Positions 1,414 to 14,081 of a DNA stretch of 32,000 bases are shown here, one piece after another. The stretch is from positions 264,784-296,783 of the forward strand of contig CAKOOM010000002.1 in the NCBI GenBank assembly GCA_934098395.1, in the 5' to 3' direction. This DNA comes from an uncultured Bacilli bacterium. GTDB lineage: Bacteria > Bacillota_I > Bacilli_A > RF39 > UBA660. The first letter of the stretch is position 1; each line of letters starts with the position of its first letter. The translations under genes were made by a program, and so were the position numbers. The notes under the pieces were generated by a model that saw nothing but the letters and a program-made list of their open reading frames with translations, did not search any database and was not told the DNA's origin.

Positions 1414-3261
1414 TTAATCAATATATACAATGACTGAACGAAATGTAACATTGGTAGCTAAATCCCCTGTACCAAAGCCAGCATATAATTCACCTGTTTC
1501 GGCAGCATTGCCACCATAACATCCGCCACCACGAAGAATCCATGGAGAACTTGTACTGAGACTATATATCTCTCTATCATACCAACCGGCCGTTTCAGAT
1601 AAAGCATGCCCGTAACATATCCCGTTATTACACGCAGTAAGTGAACTGGTAGTAGTATAATCATCATAATACTTGCTATCCGGTTTACCATTAAAACCAG
1701 CATAATTAGTACCTGTCGTTGCTTCCCATGATTTTCTACTTGCTCCCCATGTTGTACTGGCTCCGCTGTAATACCCCATCACATATTCCAACGTACCTCC
1801 AGACATATCATATATTCCCGTAATGTTACCAGTGGTGCTAGCCTTTGTACCTAGAGTTCTATCATCGGCGTATTCTCCAATTTTTCCATTGTATGATATT
1901 ATTTTTCCATCCCAAGTATATGCTCCACCCCCACTGGTATTAGCATAACATGATCTTACTTCTCCAGCACTTCTTCCAGTATAATATCCTGTACTGTTAT
2001 TTGAATACATTTCTTCATCTATTCCATAAATTGAGTGTGCTAGATATGCGGTAGCTCCCCACTCGCTATTCTTCATCATATGCGCATCTACTTTTGATGT
2101 TGAACCGTATTCGCTGGTGCCAAATTTTTGTGCTGTTTCAAATTGCATACTTACTTTTAAAGTTCTCAACGCTAATGAATTTGGCTTTATGCTTAAATCA
2201 TCTATTGGTTCACCTGCTATTTCGTATCGTGCACTATCTCCTGTCGTTTCAAACTTACCTACCCATATACCATTTAATTCGGTATTGCCAAAAGTAAAGG
2301 CTGGATGTGTACGGTAACTTCCTACCGTAGTACCAGTTGATTTAGTTGTTGTTTTATTTTCAAATACAATATCAATTGTTTGTTCGTTACCATTGCTACT
2401 TTCTGTCGTAGTCCATATTTTATATTTATATCTAGGTATCCATACCAAGTATGCCAATATATCTGATTCGGATACAGACACTCCGGTAGTATTCAGATAT
2501 TTGCTTCTTGATGAAGATGTTGTTAAAACGACATTAGCCCATTTTTTATTCTCATAATTATACCAATTCGAATCATTTCTTTTGATAGTTTTTACAGTTG
2601 TTTCACTACCGCTATTATCTATGACTACTGGTATCATGCCATCATCTAATTCAGGTGTTGCTCCGTTTAAAATACTTTCACTGTATACTATTTGCGAATC
2701 ACTACATTCACCGTTTAGGGATAGACTGAATGATTGGCTTTGAGTTTCAGTACTTGTTTCAGCACTATCTAACCAAATATATAAATAATAAGTGTTGGTT
2801 GTTGAATCATTGTATTCATTTGAAGACAAGAGCTCTATTTTATCTCCTTGACTTGTACCGGTAAATGTTCCTGATGTAACCAATCCAGTTTCACAACTAG
2901 TATCTGAGGTAGTTAAGGCATATTTAAAATTATTACTGTTAGATAGACCATTTCCTATTTCATTGATATCTAACCATAAATCCATATAGATAGAATTATT
3001 ATTTATAGTTTGTGTTCTTGTAGTTAGCGTTCTTTTTATAGCGTGTGTTCCAGTACAGCTATCTGGCATTAAATGAGTATCATTACTTGAAATTGTTCCA
3101 CCAATATCGGCAGAACATGACATTTTTTTATCTATAGTAAAAGTTAACTCTGTTTTTTGTGATTCACTAGTTTGCCATGTGAAATAAGCTAGAGTTCCAC
3201 CCATTATGGTAAAGGTTATCGTTAACATCATTAAAATTATGATTAAATTCTTGTTTTTCAT
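1414..3261 (-). CDS. Secreted protein, paralog 2 (615 aa), with a SipW-type signal-peptide-like N-terminus and an FGE-sulfatase (SUMF1)-like C-terminal domain
   Basis: The N-terminus MKNKNLIIILMMLTITFTIMGGTLAYFTWQTSES resembles the TasA/camelysin-class signal (hydrophobic core followed by GGT-x-AYFT). C-terminal motifs are HPAFTFG..LNGIWVGKFE, NSEWGATAYLAHSIYG, GIYDMSGGTLEYV, ILRGGG and TFRSVIV. These resemble the FGE-sulfatase motifs GLYDMSGNVWEW, RGGSW and GFR. Confidence 0.7.
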   Translation of the reverse strand: MKNKNLIIILMMLTITFTIMGGTLAYFTWQTSESQKTELTFTIDKKMSCSADIGGTISSNDTHLMPDSCTGTHAIKRTLTTRTQTINNNSIYMDLWLDINEIGNGLSNSNNFKYALTTSDTSCETGLVTSGTFTGTSQGDKIELLSSNEYNDSTTNTYYLYIWLDSAETSTETQSQSFSLSLNGECSDSQIVYSESILNGATPELDDGMIPVVIDNSGSETTVKTIKRNDSNWYNYENKKWANVVLTTSSSRSKYLNTTGVSVSESDILAYLVWIPRYKYKIWTTTESSNGNEQTIDIVFENKTTTKSTGTTVGSYRTHPAFTFGNTELNGIWVGKFETTGDSARYEIAGEPIDDLSIKPNSLALRTLKVSMQFETAQKFGTSEYGSTSKVDAHMMKNSEWGATAYLAHSIYGIDEEMYSNNSTGYYTGRSAGEVRSCYANTSGGGAYTWDGKIISYNGKIGEYADDRTLGTKASTTGNITGIYDMSGGTLEYVMGYYSGASTTWGASRKSWEATTGTNYAGFNGKPDSKYYDDYTTTSSLTACNNGICYGHALSETAGWYDREIYSLSTSSPWILRGGGCYGGNAAETGELYAGFGTGDLATNVTFRSVIVYID

Positions 3262-3283
3262 CTATCTCACCTATCATATAACT

Positions 3284-3315
3284 ATGATACCGCAAAAAAA
3301 TAGTTAGGATGTCAA
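3284..3315 (-). promoter_or_regulatory. Putative promoter of paralog 2 (TTGACA, 20-nt spacer containing a T7 run, TATCAT)
   Basis: The hexamers match copy 1: TTGACA at 3315-3310 and TATCAT at 3289-3284. The spacer is 2 nt longer because of the homopolymer run at 3294-3300. The inverted repeat at 3272-3289 is conserved. Confidence 0.3.
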
Positions 3316-3326
3316 CGGGTTTTTGA

Positions 3327-3365
3327 TAAAAAAATAATGCTTTTTCACTATATGGAAAAAGCATT
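3327..3365 (-). terminator. Rho-independent terminator ending the long pilin/housekeeping transcription unit
   Basis: A perfect 11-bp stem forms between aatgctttttc (3336-3346) and gaaaaagcatt (3355-3365) with an 8-nt loop. On the minus strand it is followed by AUUUUUUUA (3327-3335). Confidence 0.65.
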
Positions 3366-3383
3366 ATTTTGTGTATGTTATTT

Positions 3384-3800
3384 TTATACTGATAAATTTT
3401 TCGTATTTATAGATATATTGTATGATTTTTTTGTAGTTTTTACTGTTAAAGGAATATTTAATTCAATTAAATTTGTTGATGTGATATTACAAGTAATAGC
3501 ATCTACATCTATAGTTGTATATTTATTTACTTCAATAATAGTATCTTTGTATTTAAATTTATTACCATCAACTGATATATTATTACATGAAAATTGAGTA
3601 TTTTTATTATATACATCTCTCATAATGGTATTTGTAATAATAGCCTGATCGGTTCTGGCAAGAGTATCAACGAATAAATCATCATTTTTATTTTTTAATT
3701 TTATTACTAGGTCTAGTAAGAAGTATGCAACGCCGAAGGCTATAACTGATGCAAGAATTATTTCTACGAGCATATATCCTTTATTATTTAATTTTTTCAT
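3384..3800 (-). CDS. Type IV pilin-like (minor pseudopilin) protein
   Basis: The N-terminus MKKLNNKG/YMLVEIILASVIAFG has a basic leader, Gly at -1, Glu at +5 and a hydrophobic helix. Its start abuts the stop of the upstream pilin gene. Confidence 0.7.
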   Translation of the reverse strand: MKKLNNKGYMLVEIILASVIAFGVAYFLLDLVIKLKNKNDDLFVDTLARTDQAIITNTIMRDVYNKNTQFSCNNISVDGNKFKYKDTIIEVNKYTTIDVDAITCNITSTNLIELNIPLTVKTTKKSYNISINTKNLSV

Positions 3801-4241
3801 TTAATTATACTCCCCACTCTCAAGATAACCATATTTACACTCTTTTTTAACTTTATCACATTTTTCCATGACCAATATATAATTGCAGTTATCCACGGTT
3901 ATGGAATTTTTTAAATATTCTAGATATTCATTAAAGGTAGTATTTTCTTGTGATAGATTGGTATCAGTTATTTTATTATCTGTTAAAGGTATGGCGTAAA
4001 CAGTAGTATTAGATTCGGAATCTTTTATAATTTTAGTGTTATTTGTAGGTGCAACTATTACTTCATTTCTTCTTATTTGATCTAAATCGTAGATAATGGA
4101 TACATCATAGTAATTAATTCTTTTTTTGTATGTAGAATATATTTTATTATAACTCATATATAGACTAGTTAAAGTTATTAAAACGATTGATGATACGACA
4201 ATTACTTCGGCCATCATAAAGCCTTTTTTATTCAATTTCAT
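3801..4241 (-). CDS. Type IV pilin-like (minor pseudopilin) protein
   Basis: The maximal ORF reaches 4250. The ATG at 4241 gives MKLNKKG/FMMAEVIVVSSIVL, which parallels the other pilins, and forms a TA-A-TG overlap with the upstream stop. Confidence 0.7.
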   Translation of the reverse strand: MKLNKKGFMMAEVIVVSSIVLITLTSLYMSYNKIYSTYKKRINYYDVSIIYDLDQIRRNEVIVAPTNNTKIIKDSESNTTVYAIPLTDNKITDTNLSQENTTFNEYLEYLKNSITVDNCNYILVMEKCDKVKKECKYGYLESGEYN

Positions 4242-4585
4242 TAATTGCATGCCTCATTTTTATAAGTACAATTTCCATCACAGTTGATAGAACCTGTAAA
4301 TTGTTTATCATCGGCATCTTTTATTTCACTATCTTCAAGATTAAAGTATTGGCTAAGAGTCCCTATATTGACACATTTTTTGGTAGTAGTATAGTTATTG
4401 ATATTTTCTTCAAAATATAGTTCTCCATAACTAACTAATACTTCTTTCTTAGCATTATTTGTTTTTTGTTTGTTTCTTTCGATAGCTGATGAAATTGAAG
4501 ATATGGCTATGGTAGATATTGCTAATAAGATAACAATAACTGCTAAGAGTTCGATTAAAGTAAATCCCTTTTTATTTAGTTTCAT
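4241..4585 (-). CDS. Prepilin-type N-terminal cleavage/methylation domain protein (ComGC-like major pseudopilin candidate)
   Basis: MKLNKKG/FTLIELLAVIVILLAISTIA is a textbook class III signal, with G at -1, F at +1 and E at +5. Confidence 0.8.
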   Translation of the reverse strand: MKLNKKGFTLIELLAVIVILLAISTIAISSISSAIERNKQKTNNAKKEVLVSYGELYFEENINNYTTTKKCVNIGTLSQYFNLEDSEIKDADDKQFTGSINCDGNCTYKNEACN

Positions 4586-6261: not shown

Positions 6262-7039
6262 TGTTCCTCCTTAGGTATACATCTAATTGGTTATATGGTA
6301 TTTCGATGTTATTTTTATTAAATGCATTTTGAATTAGTTTATAGAAATCTCTTTTTACTTGATATTGAGTTTCGGGTTTGCACTCCAATAAGACGGTATA
6401 TTTGATACTACTGGAAGAGAAATCTTCAATACCTAGAGTTTGATAATTTATAACATTTTTAATTTTTAAAACTTCGTCTGTTAATTCATTTAAAACTTTT
6501 TCTAATTTATCTATATCAGTATTATATGAGACATCTAATTTTATAAAGTTTGTAGATGTAGCTCTACTGTGATTGATTATTTGTTTAAATGATGAGTTAG
6601 ATATAATTAGAATTTCTCCAGAATATGATTTTATTTTAGTACTCATTAGACCAAAGTTAGTTACTTTTCCTTTAAAGTTATTTATGGTAACAATATCACC
6701 GATAGTGTATTTATCGTCAAAGATGATAAAGATTCCTGCTAAAAAGTCAGCTACAATATCTTGTAAGGCAAGACCAATAACTACTCCAGCAATTCCAATT
6801 GATGCAAGTATTCCATTGGTGTTTATGCCATAAACATTTAATATTGCTATGATAACAAAGATAAATATTAAGTATTTAATAATATTTTTTATTAGAGAGA
6901 TAATAGTTATTCTTCGATTATCAACGTGTTTGTTATGCATTAATTTATTTACAATATTCTTAATTATATTATAAACTATTATACCTATTAATATATAAAT
7001 TAATGGTAGATAAAATTTTTCGTTTTTAATAAAATCCAT
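6254..7039 (-). CDS. Mechanosensitive ion channel (MscS family)
   Basis: It has N-terminal TM helices and the MscS core GIAGVVIGLALQDIVADFLAGIFIIFDDKYTIGDIV..FKGKV. Confidence 0.8.
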   Translation of the reverse strand: MDFIKNEKFYLPLIYILIGIIVYNIIKNIVNKLMHNKHVDNRRITIISLIKNIIKYLIFIFVIIAILNVYGINTNGILASIGIAGVVIGLALQDIVADFLAGIFIIFDDKYTIGDIVTINNFKGKVTNFGLMSTKIKSYSGEILIISNSSFKQIINHSRATSTNFIKLDVSYNTDIDKLEKVLNELTDEVLKIKNVINYQTLGIEDFSSSSIKYTVLLECKPETQYQVKRDFYKLIQNAFNKNNIEIPYNQLDVYLRRNNE

Positions 7040-8136
7040 TATATATCACTTCCTATTAATTTTTCTAAGATATAGTTTAGTAAATATAAATATTCTTTGT
7101 TGCATCTAAGATAACCATTTGAATATTCTAAACTATTATCTTTTATTAAATTTTTAATTACATCATGTTCTAATAAATTATCTTGATATTTTTGATTAAA
7201 GGTTGCTACGTTTATTCCTTTTGTTAATCTAAGTCCAAGGATTAAATCATTTTCTTTTTGAGTAGGTATATCTTCGTAACTAGTAGTAGCAATAAATTTA
7301 TTACAATAATAAGTATGTAGATTTTTAGTATTAGATATACGAGTATTTGATAAATAACTTACGGCTCCTAAGCCAAAACCATAATAACTACCATTTAACC
7401 AATAGTTTTTGTTATGAAGGCTTTCATATCCATCTTTAGCATAATTGCTTATTTCATAATGATTATAACCATTCTTGGTTAAGGTATTTTCTATATAATC
7501 ATACATGTCTCTATCAAGCTCTTCAGGAATATATTGATGGTTATTAATATATAATTTAGTATTTTTTTCAAGGATTAGAGAATAGCATGATATGTGTGGT
7601 ATATCTAATTCAAGGAATTTTTGAATATCTTTTTTAACAATATCTATATCGGGAGTTACACCATAGATAAGATCGATATTTATATTATTAAAATATTTTT
7701 TTGTTAGATATATATTATCAAAAATGGTATCTTCATCATGTTTTCTACCTAAAATACTTTGAATAGATTTGTCGAATGACTCAACTCCAAAACTTATGCG
7801 ATTTATACCATAACTAATAAATAGATTTATTTTATCGATATTGATGTCTTCGATATTGCATTCGATAGTGTATTCATAATTATCTTCAAGATTTAGTGTA
7901 TCAACGATGCTTAGTAATTTTTCTAACTCTTTTATAGTAAGACTACTAGGGGTACCACCACCAATATAGATAGTTTTTATTGGTTCGTTATGATATCTTT
8001 CTTTGATTTCTTTTTCGAGACAATCTAAGTAATTATCGACATATTTTTCATTATATAGCATTTTACAAAAGTCACAATAAGTACAGATACTACGACAAAA
8101 GGGTATGTGAATGTATACTGATAACATATTTACCAC
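7039..8136 (-). CDS. hemW: Radical SAM heme chaperone HemW (oxygen-independent coproporphyrinogen III oxidase-like)
   Basis: It has HIPFCRSICTYCDFC (CxxxCxxC) and GGGTPS. The first codon in the track is GTG. The ATG at 8127 (MLSVYIHIPFC) is the likelier start. Confidence 0.85.
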   Translation of the reverse strand: MVNMLSVYIHIPFCRSICTYCDFCKMLYNEKYVDNYLDCLEKEIKERYHNEPIKTIYIGGGTPSSLTIKELEKLLSIVDTLNLEDNYEYTIECNIEDINIDKINLFISYGINRISFGVESFDKSIQSILGRKHDEDTIFDNIYLTKKYFNNINIDLIYGVTPDIDIVKKDIQKFLELDIPHISCYSLILEKNTKLYINNHQYIPEELDRDMYDYIENTLTKNGYNHYEISNYAKDGYESLHNKNYWLNGSYYGFGLGAVSYLSNTRISNTKNLHTYYCNKFIATTSYEDIPTQKENDLILGLRLTKGINVATFNQKYQDNLLEHDVIKNLIKDNSLEYSNGYLRCNKEYLYLLNYILEKLIGSDI

Positions 8137-8780
8137 TCTATTTCTTTCAAACCATTTTTCTTTAAAAAATTATTAGTTTTAGAGAATGGCTTACTTCCAA
8201 AGAAGCCATTGTTTGCAGAAAATGGACTAGGATGTGGGGATGAGATAATTAAATGTTTAGGATTAGTTATATACTTAGCTTTGGCTTTAGCAAAATTTCC
8301 CCATAATATGAATACTACAGGGGTTTCTGATTCATTGATTTTTTTTATTATATTATCGGTAAATTCTTCCCAACCGACAAATTTATGACTAGCTGGTTTA
8401 TCTTTTTCAACGGTTAGAACACTGTTTAGAAGTAAGACGCCTTGCTTGGCCCAATCAGTTAAATCGGTATTGGTTCTTTTTATACCTAAATCATCGTAGA
8501 GTTCTTTATATATATTATTTAATGATGGGGGCATTTTTACTCCTTGATTAACTGAGAAACACATACCATTGGCTTCCCCTTCACCATGGTATGGGTCTTG
8601 TCCTAATATTACTACGGATGTATCTTTATATGGTGTCATTCTTAGAGCAAAAAATACTCTATTTGCTTGTGGAAAAATTGTTTTAGTAAGATACTCGTGT
8701 CTTACTATTCTTTTTATTTTTTGAAAATATTCGGAATTATATTCGTCTTTTAAAACTATATCCCAATCGTTACCTATCAT
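8130..8780 (-). CDS. ung: Uracil-DNA glycosylase (family 1)
   Basis: It carries the GQDPYHG, HPSPFSA and LLLNSVLTV motifs. Confidence 0.9.
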   Translation of the reverse strand: MIGNDWDIVLKDEYNSEYFQKIKRIVRHEYLTKTIFPQANRVFFALRMTPYKDTSVVILGQDPYHGEGEANGMCFSVNQGVKMPPSLNNIYKELYDDLGIKRTNTDLTDWAKQGVLLLNSVLTVEKDKPASHKFVGWEEFTDNIIKKINESETPVVFILWGNFAKAKAKYITNPKHLIISSPHPSPFSANNGFFGSKPFSKTNNFLKKNGLKEIEW

Positions 8781-8789
8781 AGTTACCTC

Positions 8790-9209
8790 TTAATTGTAAT
8801 TTTTTGGACATGAGTCATTATCAGTCTTGTTTTCAATTGTTAGTTTTCCATCTTCATATTTGACTGCTATCACACATTCTCCAATATCTACATTATCTTT
8901 AGGGTTGAAAATTTTCATTTTGTTATCTTTGGTACTACCATTACCTTTTAGGTAGCCATAATTAACTAATTCTTGTAATTTTACAGTATCTTTACATTTA
9001 ATACCAGTATTATTCGAATATTTACATTCCTGATAGTAAGTTTCCGATGCATCTTTGATGTTTTTTATAAGTAGTTTATAATTTTTTTCTTTAGCACTAT
9101 TAATAATATTTGTTATGGCATAAGCACTAATAGATACGACTAATGCCAAGACAACAATAGTGGCAATTAATTCTACTAAGGTAAAACCTTTTTTGTTTAA
9201 TTTTTCCAT
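8790..9209 (-). CDS. Prepilin-type N-terminal cleavage/methylation domain protein (orphan type IV pilin-like)
   Basis: MEKLNKKG/FTLVELIATIVVLALVV. The track start at 9218 is a GTG lying inside the AGGTGA RBS. The ATG at 9209 sits 5 nt after that RBS. Confidence 0.75.
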   Translation of the reverse strand: MEKLNKKGFTLVELIATIVVLALVVSISAYAITNIINSAKEKNYKLLIKNIKDASETYYQECKYSNNTGIKCKDTVKLQELVNYGYLKGNGSTKDNKMKIFNPKDNVDIGECVIAVKYEDGKLTIENKTDNDSCPKNYN

Positions 9210-9226
9210 ATTATTCACCTAATTTA

Positions 9227-9255
9227 ATTATACGAAATTTCTTAGAAAAAGTCTA
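9227..9255 (-). promoter_or_regulatory. Putative promoter of the pilin-ung-hemW-mscS-HD-prs-pilin unit
   Basis: On the minus strand, TAGACT (9255-9250) is separated by 17 nt from TATAAT (9232-9227), about 18 nt upstream of the ATG at 9209. Confidence 0.4.
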
Positions 9256-9338
9256 TAGTAATATTTGTCAAACTGAGGAACCAATAAAATTATTTTAATT
9301 ATATGAAAAAAAGATTAATAAGTTATGCTTGATACTTA

Positions 9339-9938
9339 TTAGATCTCTTTTTTTAATTCTTTAATTTCATCTAGAGATAGTCCAGTTATTTCTTTTATTG
9401 AATCAATATCGATATTCTTCTCAAGCATTTTTTTGGCAGTGGAAATTTTGTTTTGTTCTATACCTTTTTCAATAAAAGAATTTTTCAATAATCTTTCTTC
9501 ATCTTCATCAGATAAATATTTTACAAAGTCATCGTTATTATTTAATTTTAAGGCTTCATTTTTTAGTTTATCCATAATCTTATCTCCTTTAAAATTGGTT
9601 AATTTTTCATAATCCATATCGAGCATACCTAATATACTCATCTTTTTTTCATTATAACATAACTCTGTAGTTTTTTTAATGTTTATTTCATAAATTTCTA
9701 AATTATCAATAAAATATTTATTATTTTCTTTATCATATAATTTGTATAAAGAAAATAATGGTAGTGAACTAGTTGCAGTTGTTAAATTTATTTGAATAAA
9801 ACGTGTCATTTTTTGATAACTTTCTCCGATATTTAAAGAATCACTATATCTTTTAAAAATATATCCAGCGTTTCTTCTCCTTAAAAAAGTATCTGCATAT
9901 GAATTTAGTTCGATGTTTACTTCACCGGTTTTTGTCAT
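9339..9938 (-). CDS. Rpn-family recombination-promoting nuclease / PD-(D/E)XK 'transposase', 5'-truncated remnant (probable pseudogene)
   Basis: The C-terminus ...NIDIDSIKEITGLSLDEIKELKKEI is typical of the family. The core-like LDILV..K.GEVNIELN straddles the first ATG. The frame stays open upstream to a TAA at 10056-10058 with no start codon in between. Confidence 0.5.
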   Translation of the reverse strand: MTKTGEVNIELNSYADTFLRRRNAGYIFKRYSDSLNIGESYQKMTRFIQINLTTATSSLPLFSLYKLYDKENNKYFIDNLEIYEINIKKTTELCYNEKKMSILGMLDMDYEKLTNFKGDKIMDKLKNEALKLNNNDDFVKYLSDEDEERLLKNSFIEKGIEQNKISTAKKMLEKNIDIDSIKEITGLSLDEIKELKKEI

Positions 9939-10065
9939 TACTAAAATATCTAGAGTTTTACCTTTTAAATGGATTATATGATATTTTGAAGTATTATATT
10001 TATAGATTGATATATTTGCTATACAATAATGATTCTCATTATATATAAAGGAAGATTAAAATTAT

Positions 10066-10096
10066 ACAAATAAAAATTTAGAATAAAATTCTAAAT
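10066..10096 (-). terminator. Rho-independent terminator of the AAA/vWA operon
   Basis: A 9-bp stem forms between atttagaat (10076-10084) and attctaaat (10088-10096) with a 3-nt loop. On the minus strand it is followed by UUUUUAUUU. It starts 8 nt after the stop at 10104. Confidence 0.55.
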
Positions 10097-10103
10097 CTTT
10101 ATT

Positions 10104-11549
10104 TTATCTTGACATTCCTTTTGTTTCATTAGTCATTTGATAATTATATAGTCTTTCAAGTTGTTCATCGTCTACATGAATTACTTTACCACCTTTAGGA
10201 TTAATTCTTTTACCACCAAAAACTATCCATATTGCAACAAGTGGCATATCTGGCATTGAAGCTTCACCATCAGTAAAAATTATTTTATTTTCAACTCGTC
10301 TTGAGAAAGCACCTACAGCAACGTCGAAGTCGGTACCTCCTCCACCTTCAAATTGCATCTTTTCTATATCTTCTTCTGTTCTAATTTCATGAAATCCATA
10401 AAATTCTGTATCAAAACATCCAACTTTTAATTTAGTATGTTGTAATATATTTTTACATTCTCTTAAAAAGTTCTTTAATAATACTTCATTTATTGAGCCG
10501 CTTGTATCAAGAACAATTTCAGTTTCTGGCATTGGTTGTTCTTCTAAATTAGCACTAACTACACCATCTTCTAATGTTGCATTTTTATAAGACCAATCAA
10601 CATCATACTTAATTGTTTCTCTTAAAACATAACGCCAATCAATTAATGGTTTAGCAGTACCTATATCATTAACTGTTCTAATATCTCTATTCGTTGATGT
10701 ACCAGCCTGTGATGCTTGTTTTGAAATTGCCTCTTTTAATTCTTCTAGTTGTTTTTTCTTATCTTTAAGGTTCTTTTTAAAAGCATCTTTTTCTCCCATA
10801 CTTTCAAGTTCTTCCTGTTTCTTTTCAAGTTCAGTTTTCTCTTTATCTTTTTTATCTTTTCCTAATAATTTATCTAATAAATTCTCTTTTTTATCAGTTT
10901 TTTCTTGTTGTTCTTTATGTTTTTTTACTGCTTGTTCCCACATACTGTGAGTATCATGCCCAACATCTTGCTTTGATTTATCTTCTTTTTGTGAATTTTT
11001 CTCAGATTCACCACCACTTTGTTCTCCATCACTACTTTGCTGTTTATTTTCTTGATTTCGTTCTTGATTTTGTGTTTCTCTATTCTCTTGTTGTGATTGA
11101 GGTTGTTGTTGATTTTGTTGACTATTACCTTGTCCACTTTGTTGTTGTCCTTGTTGTTTTTCTTGTAATAATTTTTCATATAATTGTTCAGCATCATAAT
11201 TAATAGCTTCTGCCATATCAACACCACCCGGTGCCATTTTTAAACCATCTCGTTTTAAAAATTGATTAATAACACCATCAGTAGCAATATTCCATAATTC
11301 ATGATCCTTACCTTCACTTCTTAATATATGATTGAATGCAATATGACATACTTCATGGGCAAATATAAAAGTTTGTTCCTCAACACTTAATCCCTCTAAA
11401 TATTCCTGATTATAATATATTGTTTCTCCATCTGTACCTGCAACTGGTATATCTTTTTTTTCTTTATAACCGACACTTGCTACTACGCTCCCAAAAAAAG
11501 GATATTTAACAAGCATTTTTCTTTTTAATGCTGCTATATCATATTTCAT
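10104..11549 (-). CDS. Zincin metallopeptidase (HExxH) + low-complexity linker + vWA (MIDAS) domain protein, DUF2201-type architecture
   Basis: The N-terminal part has FIFAHEVCHIAFNH and WNIATDGVINQFL. The middle ~150 aa are Q/E/K/D-rich. The C-terminal part has IVLDTSGSI (DxSxS), GGGGTDFD and IIFTDGEA, which together form a complete MIDAS. Confidence 0.8.
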   Translation of the reverse strand: MKYDIAALKRKMLVKYPFFGSVVASVGYKEKKDIPVAGTDGETIYYNQEYLEGLSVEEQTFIFAHEVCHIAFNHILRSEGKDHELWNIATDGVINQFLKRDGLKMAPGGVDMAEAINYDAEQLYEKLLQEKQQGQQQSGQGNSQQNQQQPQSQQENRETQNQERNQENKQQSSDGEQSGGESEKNSQKEDKSKQDVGHDTHSMWEQAVKKHKEQQEKTDKKENLLDKLLGKDKKDKEKTELEKKQEELESMGEKDAFKKNLKDKKKQLEELKEAISKQASQAGTSTNRDIRTVNDIGTAKPLIDWRYVLRETIKYDVDWSYKNATLEDGVVSANLEEQPMPETEIVLDTSGSINEVLLKNFLRECKNILQHTKLKVGCFDTEFYGFHEIRTEEDIEKMQFEGGGGTDFDVAVGAFSRRVENKIIFTDGEASMPDMPLVAIWIVFGGKRINPKGGKVIHVDDEQLERLYNYQMTNETKGMSR

Positions 11550-11559
11550 AACTTACACC

Positions 11560-11952
11560 TCAAATTCGTGCAACTAATGAAAATATTTCTTCACTTATTT
11601 TATCTTTATTTATTTCATTTGCAGTAACAATTATTACACAGCTTTTAGGTAATTCAAATGTAGATATTTTCCTATGTTCTAATAATTCACAAAACTTTAA
11701 TTGTTCTTCTTTAGAAATCGAATCAATTTTATCAATTACTAATATTCTACTAGCATTTGTACTTAATATTTCATTAAGCCATTTAGGAGGCATAAAATCT
11801 ACTCCATCATAATGACCATTTAACTCTTTAACATCAACAGTGGCAGGTACTAGAACTGCACCATTCAAATCCTTACCAGATATAAAGTCAACTAATATTG
11901 GTGCAACATTTGCTTTAATATATGATAACAATATTTCTTTCTTATTTTCCAT
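11560..11952 (-). CDS. Small AAA+-like protein without a Walker A P-loop (degenerate ATPase subunit or adaptor)
   Basis: RILVIDKIDSISKEEQLKFCELLEHRK....LPKSCVIIVTAN looks like Walker B through sensor-1 of a MoxR-type fold. There is no GxxxxGK[ST]. Its start shares one nucleotide with the upstream stop (TA-A-TG at 11952). Confidence 0.5.
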   Translation of the reverse strand: MENKKEILLSYIKANVAPILVDFISGKDLNGAVLVPATVDVKELNGHYDGVDFMPPKWLNEILSTNASRILVIDKIDSISKEEQLKFCELLEHRKISTFELPKSCVIIVTANEINKDKISEEIFSLVARI

Positions 11953-13886
11953 TATCTTCTTATACCTCCTTCAGGCATTTCAGCAAGCTTTGCTTCTGCA
12001 AGTCTTTCTAATTTACTTTCATCACCATGTGTCCATAAAGCATCAAAAATTGCACCAAACTCTGCTCCTAATCCTGTAACGAATCTTCTAACTTTTTCTA
12101 AATTATCATCATCTACCTGTGTTAATCCCATAGTTGTTGCATATCTTTCAGCAGTATTTAATACTTGTATATCTCTATTGGTATAATTTCCATTTATTAC
12201 ATCGTCTAATGTTATTACTTGTTGATTACAAAATTCAACAAATTCTCTTGTTATATCTTCACCTACTAATGCCCTTAACATTTCTGGACTTCCTGTTGCA
12301 TAAAGCATTTTAGAAGCCATTTCCCATTTTCTAGGATCAGCATTAGGTTTCTCACCATCATACTTACTTCTTAATGTTTCACCCTTCTTATAAGCAATAT
12401 AAGAATAAATTGCTGGATGTATATTATGTTCACTTGCCCACTTTAACCAACCTTCGGTTGTTGTTTTAATATATACATGAGCAAATCTATTAAATAATGG
12501 TTCTGCTAACTGATTTGCAGCAAGTGAATCTTTCATATCATTTCCTGCTGCTACAATTCTAGCATTCTCTGGTAATTTCCAAATACCATTTACTTCTCTA
12601 TCTAAAACTATATTAAACGCTATACCTTGAATACTTGGTAGTGCATTTGTTATTTCATCAAAGAATACTACATGAAGTCTATCTGGTTCCTTTTCACATT
12701 TTTCTTGTAATTTCTTAAGCCATGTTGGTGGAACATCCATCATTTCTCCTGTTGATCCATTATATACACTTTTACCATTTAAACTTTCTGGTGTCGCATT
12801 ACGAAGATATATTATTTCGCAAGTAGGATCTATTTGTTTTACTCTTGCAGATTTACCCTCTGATGAAGGACCATGCAAGAATACTGCTACACCACTTTCT
12901 ATTGCTCCTCTTATGATTTCTTCTTCACTTACTTGCCCAAATTTTAAACCATAGGGGTTTCTTCTTTCAGCTTGTTTTTGTTCTTCTTCAAATTGAGCTT
13001 TTTCTTCTGGTGTCATATTTTTAACACGAGTAAATGTTACAGTTTGAGTTAAATCTCGAAGCATATATCTATCAAGATATTCTTTCATTTCTGTTCTATC
13101 AAAATCACCTTTATAATTAGTTCTTTCATCAAGAAATCTTATACCAGAAACCAATCCTTTTTTTGAAATTAAAATTCCTGTTCTATCATCTATCAACCAT
13201 TTAACCGGTGACACTTCTATCCAAACATAATCACCATTTCTATATTCAATGCCATTTGAAAGCTTGAATTTTTTGTCACAAAAATAAGAGTTAGCTTTTA
13301 TGCGAATATATCTCTTTCCATAATATTCGTATTCTTCATAAGTTACAGGTTTAAATCCTGTATCAAAGTCTTTATAGTCTACAGAATCAAATGTGTAACT
13401 TTTTCCCGTTTTATTCATTCCTCTATTATATTCTGACTCTAGTATATTTTGCATTCTTAAATCAGCGGCGTTTTGAGGATATTCTCCATATTCTACTTCT
13501 TCTGTTCCATTGTATCCCCTCACTCTATTTTGAGAGATTTGGGAAAAAATTATAGAAGATTTCAAAGCTGGGCGAACAGCAATATGGCGGCAAAACTCAC
13601 GTTGACTGCGCCTACGACCATTCTCATCGACCACGCGAACATCTTTACGGTCATCATCAGATCTAGTCCAAAACCAACTAGTTCTACCAGTTAAAGATCT
13701 ATCTTCATCTATATTATAATCAGTATTTTCACATAAATAACTACCTGTTAAAATACATAAATCTGTAATTGCGGCTTTTATTCCATATTTTCTAATTACA
13801 TCTAATTGAGGTTCACTACTGTTTCCCAAAATTTGTCCTTCAGATAATAAAGTTAAATCTTGACTATTCATTTTAATCATCACCAC
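11952..13886 (-). CDS. AAA+ ATPase (MoxR/AAA_5-like) fused to a ~330-aa unassigned N-terminal region
   Basis: It has Walker A LHGPSSEGKS, Walker B HVVFFDEITNA, sensor-1 RIVAAGN and EPLFNRFAHV. The track start at 13886 is a GTG. The ATG at 13880 or at 13871 (preceded by GGTGA) is the likelier start. Confidence 0.8.
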   Translation of the reverse strand: MVMIKMNSQDLTLLSEGQILGNSSEPQLDVIRKYGIKAAITDLCILTGSYLCENTDYNIDEDRSLTGRTSWFWTRSDDDRKDVRVVDENGRRRSQREFCRHIAVRPALKSSIIFSQISQNRVRGYNGTEEVEYGEYPQNAADLRMQNILESEYNRGMNKTGKSYTFDSVDYKDFDTGFKPVTYEEYEYYGKRYIRIKANSYFCDKKFKLSNGIEYRNGDYVWIEVSPVKWLIDDRTGILISKKGLVSGIRFLDERTNYKGDFDRTEMKEYLDRYMLRDLTQTVTFTRVKNMTPEEKAQFEEEQKQAERRNPYGLKFGQVSEEEIIRGAIESGVAVFLHGPSSEGKSARVKQIDPTCEIIYLRNATPESLNGKSVYNGSTGEMMDVPPTWLKKLQEKCEKEPDRLHVVFFDEITNALPSIQGIAFNIVLDREVNGIWKLPENARIVAAGNDMKDSLAANQLAEPLFNRFAHVYIKTTTEGWLKWASEHNIHPAIYSYIAYKKGETLRSKYDGEKPNADPRKWEMASKMLYATGSPEMLRALVGEDITREFVEFCNQQVITLDDVINGNYTNRDIQVLNTAERYATTMGLTQVDDDNLEKVRRFVTGLGAEFGAIFDALWTHGDESKLERLAEAKLAEMPEGGIRR

Positions 13887-14081
13887 AATTATATTTTACC
13901 ATAAATATAATGATTAAGTAAAGTAAGTAAATATTAATTTAAATTTAATAAATATTAATTATTTGGAATGCTTTAAGTATAGTAATTGAAAAACTGTTAT
14001 ATTATTTATGTGGATAATTGTAGATTATTAAATATTCTCAATAAATTTGTTTGGATTTTGAATTAATTAATTTTATTGTTT

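Follow-up and report, generated by a model that had tools for sequence, protein, structure and literature searches.

In this study, we examined a three-gene operon, here called A-B-C, in a 32,000-nucleotide stretch of DNA (the window, whose coordinates are used throughout) from an uncultured Bacilli bacterium (assembly GCA_934098395.1, contig CAKOOM010000002.1). All three genes lie on the minus strand, and they had been described from the letters alone as an N-domain-fused MoxR/AAA_5-like ATPase, a P-loop-less AAA-like protein and a protein joining a zincin peptidase to a von Willebrand factor A (vWA) domain with a metal ion-dependent adhesion site (MIDAS). The extra N-terminal domain of A was rightly noted in that original prediction; what it missed is the identity of this domain as a variable-protein domain of diversity-generating retroelements (DGRs), so that the module is a hypermutable-receptor system and not a generic MoxR-vWA pair. 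At the level of the family, the N-terminal domain of A is almost certainly a DGR target. The window itself appears, from comparison with related copies, to hold an orphaned, fixed-specificity form, the retroelement having been lost from its neighbourhood. With slightly better than even confidence, and by analogy with known systems, we read it as the orphaned copy of a DGR-serviced cytoplasmic conflict module that would combine sensor, motor and protease. The features on which this argument rests are the following.

11952..13886, minus strand: ORF A (ORF list), 644 aa, N-terminal variable, putative receptor domain fused to an AAA+ ATPase
12927..13886, minus strand: N-terminal domain of A, residues 1-320, DUF6273-like and hypervariable between homologues
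13562..13641, minus strand: variable region (VR), 80 nt, A codons ~83-109, predicted DGR target site
11560..11952, minus strand: ORF B (ORF list, model), 130 aa, AAA+ alpha/beta subdomain only
10104..11549, minus strand: ORF C (ORF list, Pfam), 481 aa, zincin, Q/E/K-rich linker and vWA(MIDAS)

Sequence variation in A is concentrated in its N-terminal domain. Column entropy in 82 homologues runs at 1.2-2.6 bits across residues 1-320 and at 0.3-0.7 bits in the ATPase core, peaking at residues 81-100. When close copies are aligned by codon, about 13 VR codons display all four bases at positions 1 and 2 while position 3 is fixed, and the codons flanking the VR are invariant, synonymous sites included. 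The template inferred from this codon pattern (AAT AAG AAT GGT AAT AGG AAC AAC AAA TAT AGG TAT AAA CGC AAT GGT) exists: a blastn search with the VR retrieved it exactly, as a template repeat (TR; core GTCCGCGCGGTCAATAAGAATGGTAATAGGAACAACAAATATAG...GTTCGCCCAG), at positions 6633-6712 of the related locus L003, flanked on one side by a bAvd-like gene (1.4e-5) and on the other by an RVT_1 reverse transcriptase (RT; 1.2e-16), which contains the motifs YMDD and LGNQSSQ and stops 65 nt short of A. Of 75 related loci, 12 have an intact RT directly upstream of A, nine of these with a recognisable Avd, and RT remnants occupy the same place in 6 further loci. Among phage RTs, the nearest relative comes from nd12 (42% identity), in whose DGR the target likewise follows the RT. 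Comparison of each VR with the TR gives 12 adenine-site and no other mismatches for L003 itself, 10 and none for L001, and 9-16 adenine-site versus 1-7 other mismatches for 20 further in-register copies. Across 121 proteins sharing 88% identity or more with the A of the window, VR entropy exceeds 3 bits at residues 87, 89, 91, 93-95, 99, and 101, lies at 1.5-2.5 bits at residues 85, 88, 96, and 98, and is low at scaffold residues and in the flanks. Natural pairs of A occur that are identical across some 610 residues and differ at 7-10 VR residues; similarly, tandem A paralogues, present in many loci, have ATPase domains 92-100% identical and N-domains only 42-90% identical. The ratio of nonsynonymous to synonymous change (dN/dS) is 2.0-4.6 in the VR, against 0.08-0.21 in the ATPase domain of A, 0.07-0.63 in B, and 0.16-0.46 in C, and purifying selection on the ATPase, B, and C, the VR excepted, is shown by these substitution patterns. 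In related genomes, an adjacent Avd-TR-RT retroelement is shown, at the sequence level, to rewrite the VR at template adenines.

The nature of the variable domain is apparent at the profile level. Of 49 family members, 13 match Pfam DUF6273 (best E 3.9e-7), with the copy in the window below threshold (3.9e-4); DUF6273 is reported to be a C-type-lectin-like domain targeted by DGRs in gut phages (PMC10743442; bioRxiv 10.1101/2024.10.15.618418). In an AlphaFold model of the N-domain (pLDDT 88.5), the VR falls on a beta-hairpin and an adjacent strand. An hhalign comparison with the DGR target of phage nd12 (E 5.7e-4, probability 29%) weakly aligned the W-W-x-R-S...V-R-P scaffold. The two best BFVD matches to the model, one to an unnamed protein and one to a DUF6273 protein of Siphoviridae, had E ~0.04 and poor TM-scores; a profile search of the PDB returned only spurious short hemopexin-repeat matches, and tblastn of the N-domain against phage genomes gave no match.

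Several related loci depart from this plan or add to it. Just upstream of Avd, a conserved 162-aa ORF occurs in 6 DGR-carrying loci (L003:5340-5828; L009, L016, L022, L023, and L025) and may be an extra DGR accessory gene. In L025, which has an intact Avd-TR-RT, A (8001-9939) is broken by a 1-nt insertion within the VR (near 8246-8326), which may have arisen by faulty homing or as an artefact of assembling a mixed VR population, and an 8-codon duplication lies within the VR of L017 (8291-8370). The VR-bearing N-domain also occurs without the ATPase, as two tandem proteins of ~360 aa with a short helical tail (L080:8011-9102 and 10001-11086) that have no B or C nearby, and one protein (P0121) carries two N-domains in tandem.

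Outside the variable domain, A is an intact AAA+ ATPase.

11952..12926, minus strand: AAA+ ATPase domain of A, residues 321-644, delimited by phrog_1297, motifs and dN/dS

It displays Walker A (GPSSEGKS, 339-346), Walker B (VVFFDEI, 406-412), IVAAGN (444-449, with the sensor-1 N449), and NRF (466-468), and, as with those of C, these motifs are at least 90% conserved, the sample being 62-82 homologues. Residues 323-612 match phrog_1297, "ATPase" (E 2.6e-46), and the domain shares ~27-31% identity with phage ATPases, from Schitoviridae and PA5oct-like phages, a number of which carry the annotation "MoxR-like ATPase". Neither phmmer nor a PDB profile search with the ATPase reached MoxR structures, the latter returning only weak matches to AAA+ domains of sigma-54 activators, and the NCBIfam scan gave no match for A and was uninformative for all three proteins. 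What A has in common with the MoxR class is an intact set of Walker A, Walker B and sensor-1 together with a vWA/MIDAS partner gene (C) in the operon; the label "MoxR-like" is thus used here because of this partnership and of the phage homologue annotations, and not as a class membership established by profile.

B aligns with residues 366-471 of A, yet its catalytic motifs are degraded: Walker A reads ISGKDLNG, Walker B reads IDKID and has no glutamate, the NRF arginine is replaced (SLV), and there is no lid domain. Pfam gives only a weak AAA match. The AlphaFold model (pLDDT 93.8) retrieved, with Foldseek, the AAA+ domains of LONP1, NorQ, CbbQ, Rea1, and NtrC-type proteins (probability 1.00, TM-score ~0.65). 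The description of B as P-loop-less and AAA-like is therefore borne out, the P-loop being absent and the model adopting the AAA+ alpha/beta fold, and the predicted structure shows B as a catalytically dead AAA+ alpha/beta pseudo-protomer. Nor is B a gene fragment, since it belongs to a family of 194 clusters at 50% identity in which the matches that span most of B are ~115-160 aa long (others being shorter fragments). It is found in 58 of 76 loci, each time between A and C.

C belongs to the DUF2201 class of zincin-vWA proteins (Pfam PF13203 plus PF09967; phrog_1314), and both Pfam domains score above threshold, as expected from its earlier description as a zincin-linker-vWA(MIDAS) protein.

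10920..11528, minus strand: zincin (HExxH) domain of C, residues 8-210, Pfam DUF2201_N envelope
10173..10517, minus strand: vWA-like domain of C, residues 345-459, Pfam DUF2201 envelope

The match to DUF2201_N has an E of 1.9e-33 (116.7 bits, cut-off 23.2), that to the vWA-like DUF2201 an E of 9.4e-14 (52.0 bits, cut-off 26.4), and that to phrog_1314 an E of 6.7e-68; similarity to the minigluzincin MJ1213 is weak. The motifs HEVCH (65-69), DTSGS (348-352), GGGGTD (T406), and FTDG (D427) supply the H65-E66-x-x-H69 site and the MIDAS residues D348, S350, S352, T406, and D427, all conserved in at least 90% of 62 homologues. The two domains are joined by a long low-complexity linker rich in Q, E, and K (window 10600-11170, C residues ~130-290), which differs so widely in length among homologues that C ranges from ~400 to 760 aa.

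The module is widespread and, apparently, mobile. A has more than 2800 homologues and a relative in 129 GTDB species, and the hosts are mostly uncultured gut Bacilli or "Tenericutes"-type metagenome-assembled genomes, including one complete 1.46-Mb chromosome; some are Clostridia, where A and C occur without B. The original prediction had suspected an accessory, possibly horizontally acquired unit, and the chromosomal site is indeed different in each species examined: neither tsaD nor ung lies near the cassette in any of 75 species loci (0/75), and five lineages have it at five sites, namely tsaD/ABC/rpn-ung (the window and a 99% twin), pheST-pfkB-smr/ABC, ftsEX/ABC/veg, glycosyltransferase/ABC/relBE, and polA/ABC/sepF. 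A blastn comparison of both flanks with 79 loci places the ends of homology with other copies ~20 nt before A and ~83 nt after C.

10020..13903, minus strand: transferable cassette, approximate limits, ~3.9 kb

Clustering of ORFs in the 79 loci returned only antisense artefacts, housekeeping genes and the 162-aa ORF mentioned above (6 loci) and no further conserved partner, in agreement with the earlier view of the unit as self-contained. A conserved core operon is ruled out by the different locus in each lineage, and an ordinary prophage remnant by the lack of linked phage genes. Synonymous divergence (dS) between the cassette of the window and those of L001, L004, and L077 is only 0.09-0.14, in different GTDB species and with unrelated flanks; uncalibrated as it is by a shared housekeeping gene, dS suggests recent horizontal transfer of the cassette between species. 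Arrays of up to six A genes also occur (L020, the whole locus; L031:11628-17451), arranged A-A-B-C-A-A-B-C-A-A or A-B-C-A-A-A, with near-identical ATPase halves and different VRs and N-domains. Many contigs stop at the cassette or close to it, a hint that multi-copy repeats break the assemblies.

The sensor-motor-protease model draws on NorQ-NorD, CbbQ-CbbO, and the DGR-linked MoxR-vWA-VMAP conflict systems. By this analogy, A would assemble into a ring displaying the variable receptor domains, C would dock onto the ring through its vWA/MIDAS domain, and B would act as a non-hydrolysing regulatory or adaptor subunit that modulates or bridges the assembly. Binding of a cognate protein by the variable domain would then trigger ATP-driven remodelling, which would either activate the zincin or hand the bound protein to it. 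The ligand would most plausibly be a phage or mobile-element protein, since the anticipatory diversification of a cytoplasmic domain makes sense only against a moving target. A role of the operon in defence or regulated proteolysis, as proposed earlier, is likewise suggested by comparison with known systems. A bolder formulation is possible, with the chances in our view running against it: that of a programmable intracellular protein-recognition machine, in which a DGR-written site on an AAA+ motor would allow motor, dead-AAA adaptor and zincin-vWA protein to neutralise, or signal on, an invader protein, and which would spread horizontally and still work at fixed specificity without its retroelement.

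A number of observations weigh against the conflict-module reading, beginning with the window copy itself. No RT, Avd or TR was detected within the 32 kb by repeat search, blastn with the VR or tblastn with the L003 RT and Avd, so the DGR link of this copy is either historical or exerted in trans. Its VR differs from the TR of L003, a 90%-identical relative, at 16 of 26 adenine sites versus 8 of 54 others (Fisher p=4.6e-5), and these 8 non-adenine mismatches are the most among close copies, with changes at otherwise conserved scaffold codons (TAT AGG TAT to CGT GAG TTT). The Foldseek search of the N-domain model against PDB and BFVD returned nothing at E<=0.001, leaving the C-type-lectin fold unconfirmed. 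The match of A to Pfam AAA_5 (E 0.019; 15.4 bits, cut-off 22) is below threshold, so that of the earlier "MoxR/AAA_5-like" assignment the AAA+ part holds and strict MoxR membership does not. A physical A-B-C interaction is presumed by analogy with the chaperone and conflict systems named above. The neighbours are housekeeping genes, and a defence-island context for an immune role is lacking. A search of PADLOC-DB 2.0, the kind of defence-catalogue check proposed with the original prediction, gave no match for B, C or the Rpn remnant that lies downstream, and for A only a chance-level match to HamB (E 0.032). Finally, pairs of a homologous ATPase with a DUF2201 protein occur in lytic Schitoviridae and PA5oct-like jumbo phages, and therefore the core pair can serve a phage and not the host.

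The state of the window copy nonetheless agrees with an orphaned, and not a ruined, module. Its VR is identical to that of P0001-P0003, from other assemblies of the same lineage that differ at other residues, and from this identity across four assemblies we take the VR to be frozen in this lineage. The end of the target site (GCTGTTCGCCCAG) is intact, so that a DGR located elsewhere in the genome might still service it in trans. Given that the three genes are still intact and constrained, the module probably works with a single hard-wired specificity. That the operon is instead a decaying relic, its receptor useless after DGR loss and its genes heading to pseudogenisation, is distinctly unlikely in our judgement. 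Such a view would account for the missing RT and TR, for the non-adenine VR changes that reach conserved scaffold codons, for the truncation of the adjoining Rpn gene, and for the frameshifts in A or C of several relatives; against it, all three ORFs are intact with every catalytic motif kept, same-locus copies in other assemblies are 98-99% identical with few substitutions, dN/dS is well under 1 for the ATPase, B, and C, and many RT-less lineages hold intact cassettes, one identical protein occurring on 15 contigs.

Whom the module serves is a separate matter. It might be a device of a phage or integrative element, used for superinfection exclusion, counter-defence or host takeover, with the variable domain aimed at proteins of the host or of rival elements. 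The phage affiliation of the ATPase and C (phrog_1297 and phrog_1314, paired in Schitoviridae, the ATPase occurring in PA5oct-like jumbo phages as well), the closeness of the RT to those of gut-phage DGRs, the helix-turn-helix regulators, C5 methylase or large serine recombinase near some RT-carrying loci, and the low dS (0.09-0.14) to copies in other species despite unrelated flanks all fit such a device. Yet no close relative of A was found among IMG/VR viral contigs, the cassette is not linked to phage structural, integrase or replication genes in the window or in most loci, and it persists stand-alone amid housekeeping genes; we give this alternative a small but appreciable chance. A housekeeping MoxR-vWA pair, devoted like NorQ-NorD, CbbQ-CbbO or RavA-ViaA to the maturation of a fixed cellular client, is very unlikely. 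An AAA+ gene beside a vWA/MIDAS partner is the classic MoxR arrangement, the model of B resembles the NorQ and CbbQ AAA+ domains, and the neighbours are housekeeping genes, but a fixed client is hard to reconcile with an N-domain under targeted hypermutation and with the divergence of tandem paralogues, the locus differs in each lineage, and no conserved client gene lies nearby. Highly improbable, to our mind, is an extracellular variable domain that would serve as an adhesin or as a binder of host or phage receptors, as most characterised DGR targets do: the gut-phage DUF6273 targets are interpreted as receptor-binding proteins, but A, as judged by eye only, lacks the hydrophobic N-terminus that a signal peptide or membrane anchor would need, and its variable domain is fused straight onto a cytoplasmic ATPase.

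Among known systems, the conflict-module reading finds its nearest counterpart in the DGR-linked MoxR-vWA-VMAP ternary systems known from cyanobacteria and from purple sulfur bacteria (Kaur et al. 2020, PMC7159879; Dore et al. 2024, PMC10907252), where DGR-diversified CLec sensors were described in MoxR-vWA conflict systems of multicellular bacteria. Both place a DGR-diversified ligand-binding domain in a multi-gene module, both combine a MoxR-like AAA+ ATPase with a vWA/MIDAS protein and a peptidase, and in both the sensors are predicted to be cytoplasmic, with a proposed logic that runs from sensor to NTPase to effector. In A-B-C, however, the variable domain forms the N-terminus of the ATPase and the VR lies near the 5' end, whereas in the ternary systems it sits on the vWA protein or on a separate target; the vWA protein is a DUF2201 zincin-vWA fusion; an inactive AAA+ pseudo-protomer (B) is added; and the ATPase comes from the phage family phrog_1297. 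The hosts differ too, being small-genome uncultured gut Bacilli/Mycoplasmatota-like bacteria and some Clostridia instead of multicellular organisms. No VMAP, Trypco, TIR or trypsin/caspase component was detected in A-B-C; for VMAP this covers the Pfam matches of the three proteins at E<=0.1 and the 79 loci, which hold no extra conserved neighbours. Lacking a VMAP component, A-B-C does not belong to the vWA-MoxR-VMAP ternary systems.

The DUF6273 DGRs of gut phages (tentaclins of nd4 and nd12, PMC10743442; the Toutatisvirus hotspot, bioRxiv 10.1101/2024.10.15.618418) share with A the order Avd-TR-RT then target, the VR scaffold W-W-x-R-S ... V-R-P, and a VR predicted to form a beta-hairpin. In phage nd12 the DGR targets are DUF6273 proteins, and target1 is reported to have its VR near the 5' end (PMC10743442); such targets were interpreted as receptor-binding proteins (PMC10743442; bioRxiv 10.1101/2024.10.15.618418). 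The phage targets are virion receptor-binding proteins with Ig-like domains, whereas the domain of A, similar to them at the profile level only, is fused to an AAA+ ATPase and moves with B and C in a chromosomal cassette. In Schitoviridae (N4-like phages), the phrog_1297 and phrog_1314 genes are adjacent and in the same order as A and C, the ATPase being ~27-31% and the zincin-vWA protein ~28-33% identical, and PA5oct-like jumbo phages also have a homologous ATPase; these phage ATPases, unlike A, have no variable N-domain and no linked DGR. In Acinetobacter phage nACB1 (Schitoviridae; L086:2556-2969), the ATPase and the DUF2201 homologue are separated by a 137-aa ORF, which takes the place of B; as a phage counterpart of B this ORF is ruled out, with no similarity to B and no PHROG. 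The MoxR-vWA chaperone pairs (NorQ-NorD, CbbQ-CbbO, and RavA-ViaA) resemble A-B-C in pairing an AAA+ ring with an adjacent vWA/MIDAS partner, and the model of B superposes on the AAA+ domains of NorQ and CbbQ; they differ in having a fixed client and neither a protease domain, nor a hypervariable domain, nor a dead AAA subunit, and in occupying conserved loci beside client genes. A search of full-text literature on DUF2201, and on DGRs with MoxR or ATPases, returned no description of the A-B-C architecture (the supplementary tables of large DGR surveys being outside this scope). The earlier statement that this is not a described system thus holds, in the literature covered, for the architecture, but not for its principle, DGR sensors in MoxR/vWA conflict systems having already been described.

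If the bolder formulation is true, A-B-C would give unicellular gut bacteria with small genomes an arm of immunity that is anticipatory and antibody-like. DGRs are best understood on extracellular receptors (phage tail fibres and pili), and the case for their use on cytoplasmic conflict sensors has until now been made chiefly in multicellular cyanobacteria and in purple sulfur bacteria; in the A-B-C family the variable domain sits directly on the ATPase and is paired with a zincin-vWA protein and a conserved dead AAA+ subunit. DUF2201 and the phage pair phrog_1297/phrog_1314 would gain a testable functional context, and the ~6-kb Avd-TR-RT-A-B-C unit would be a compact system for coupling hypervariable recognition to an AAA+ motor and a protease, for which natural RT-less copies, such as that of the window, would provide built-in controls of frozen specificity.

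The layout of the operon is as originally described in its three ORFs, junctions and motifs. The last base of the A stop codon is also the first base of B (TA-A-TG), a gap of 10 nt separates B from C, and good Shine-Dalgarno sequences precede B and C (GAAGGAGG and GAGGTG). The listed start of A is a GTG, while gene callers on a 99%-identical contig choose the ATG at 13871, which is likely the true start. Promoter-like hexamers upstream of A are not more frequent than in shuffled sequence. The two flanking hairpins, noted before as terminators, both fold better than shuffled sequence, each being followed by a U-run: that 3' of tsaD has -9.6 kcal/mol (z -3.0), and that after C is likely a terminator.

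10069..10103, minus strand: A+T-rich hairpin and U-run 3' of C, fold -11.4 kcal/mol, z -4.2 against shuffled sequence

The hairpin after C sits within the cassette portion common to other copies. A consensus terminator scan, which needs G+C pairs, missed both hairpins because their stems are A+T-only.

The flanks also agree with the original prediction of core genes and a decayed Rpn-type nuclease gene. Upstream lie tsaE-tsaB-rimI-tsaD, with only 225 nt between tsaD and A, and a ribosomal-protein/secY/rpoA cluster; downstream are a 5'-truncated Rpn/PDDEXK_2 gene, a pseudopilin gene, ung, and hemW. The Rpn/PDDEXK_2 "recombination-promoting nuclease" gene (window 9339-9938), just beyond the cassette, is missing about 65 positions at the start of the profile and probably represents a remnant. 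Elsewhere in the window, a ~2-kb tandem duplication (1-1437 and 1971-3425, 76-91% identity) has produced two paralogous copies of a large ORF, one of 615 aa (1414-3261) without a Pfam match and the other running past the window start. A cluster of small genes (8790-9218, 4241-4585, 3801-4250, and 3384-3800), two of them with N-terminal methylation (pseudopilin) motifs, looks from sequence features like a ComG/type-IV-pilin-like set broken up by housekeeping genes, and three of its genes have a common repeated 5' end (repeat D5).

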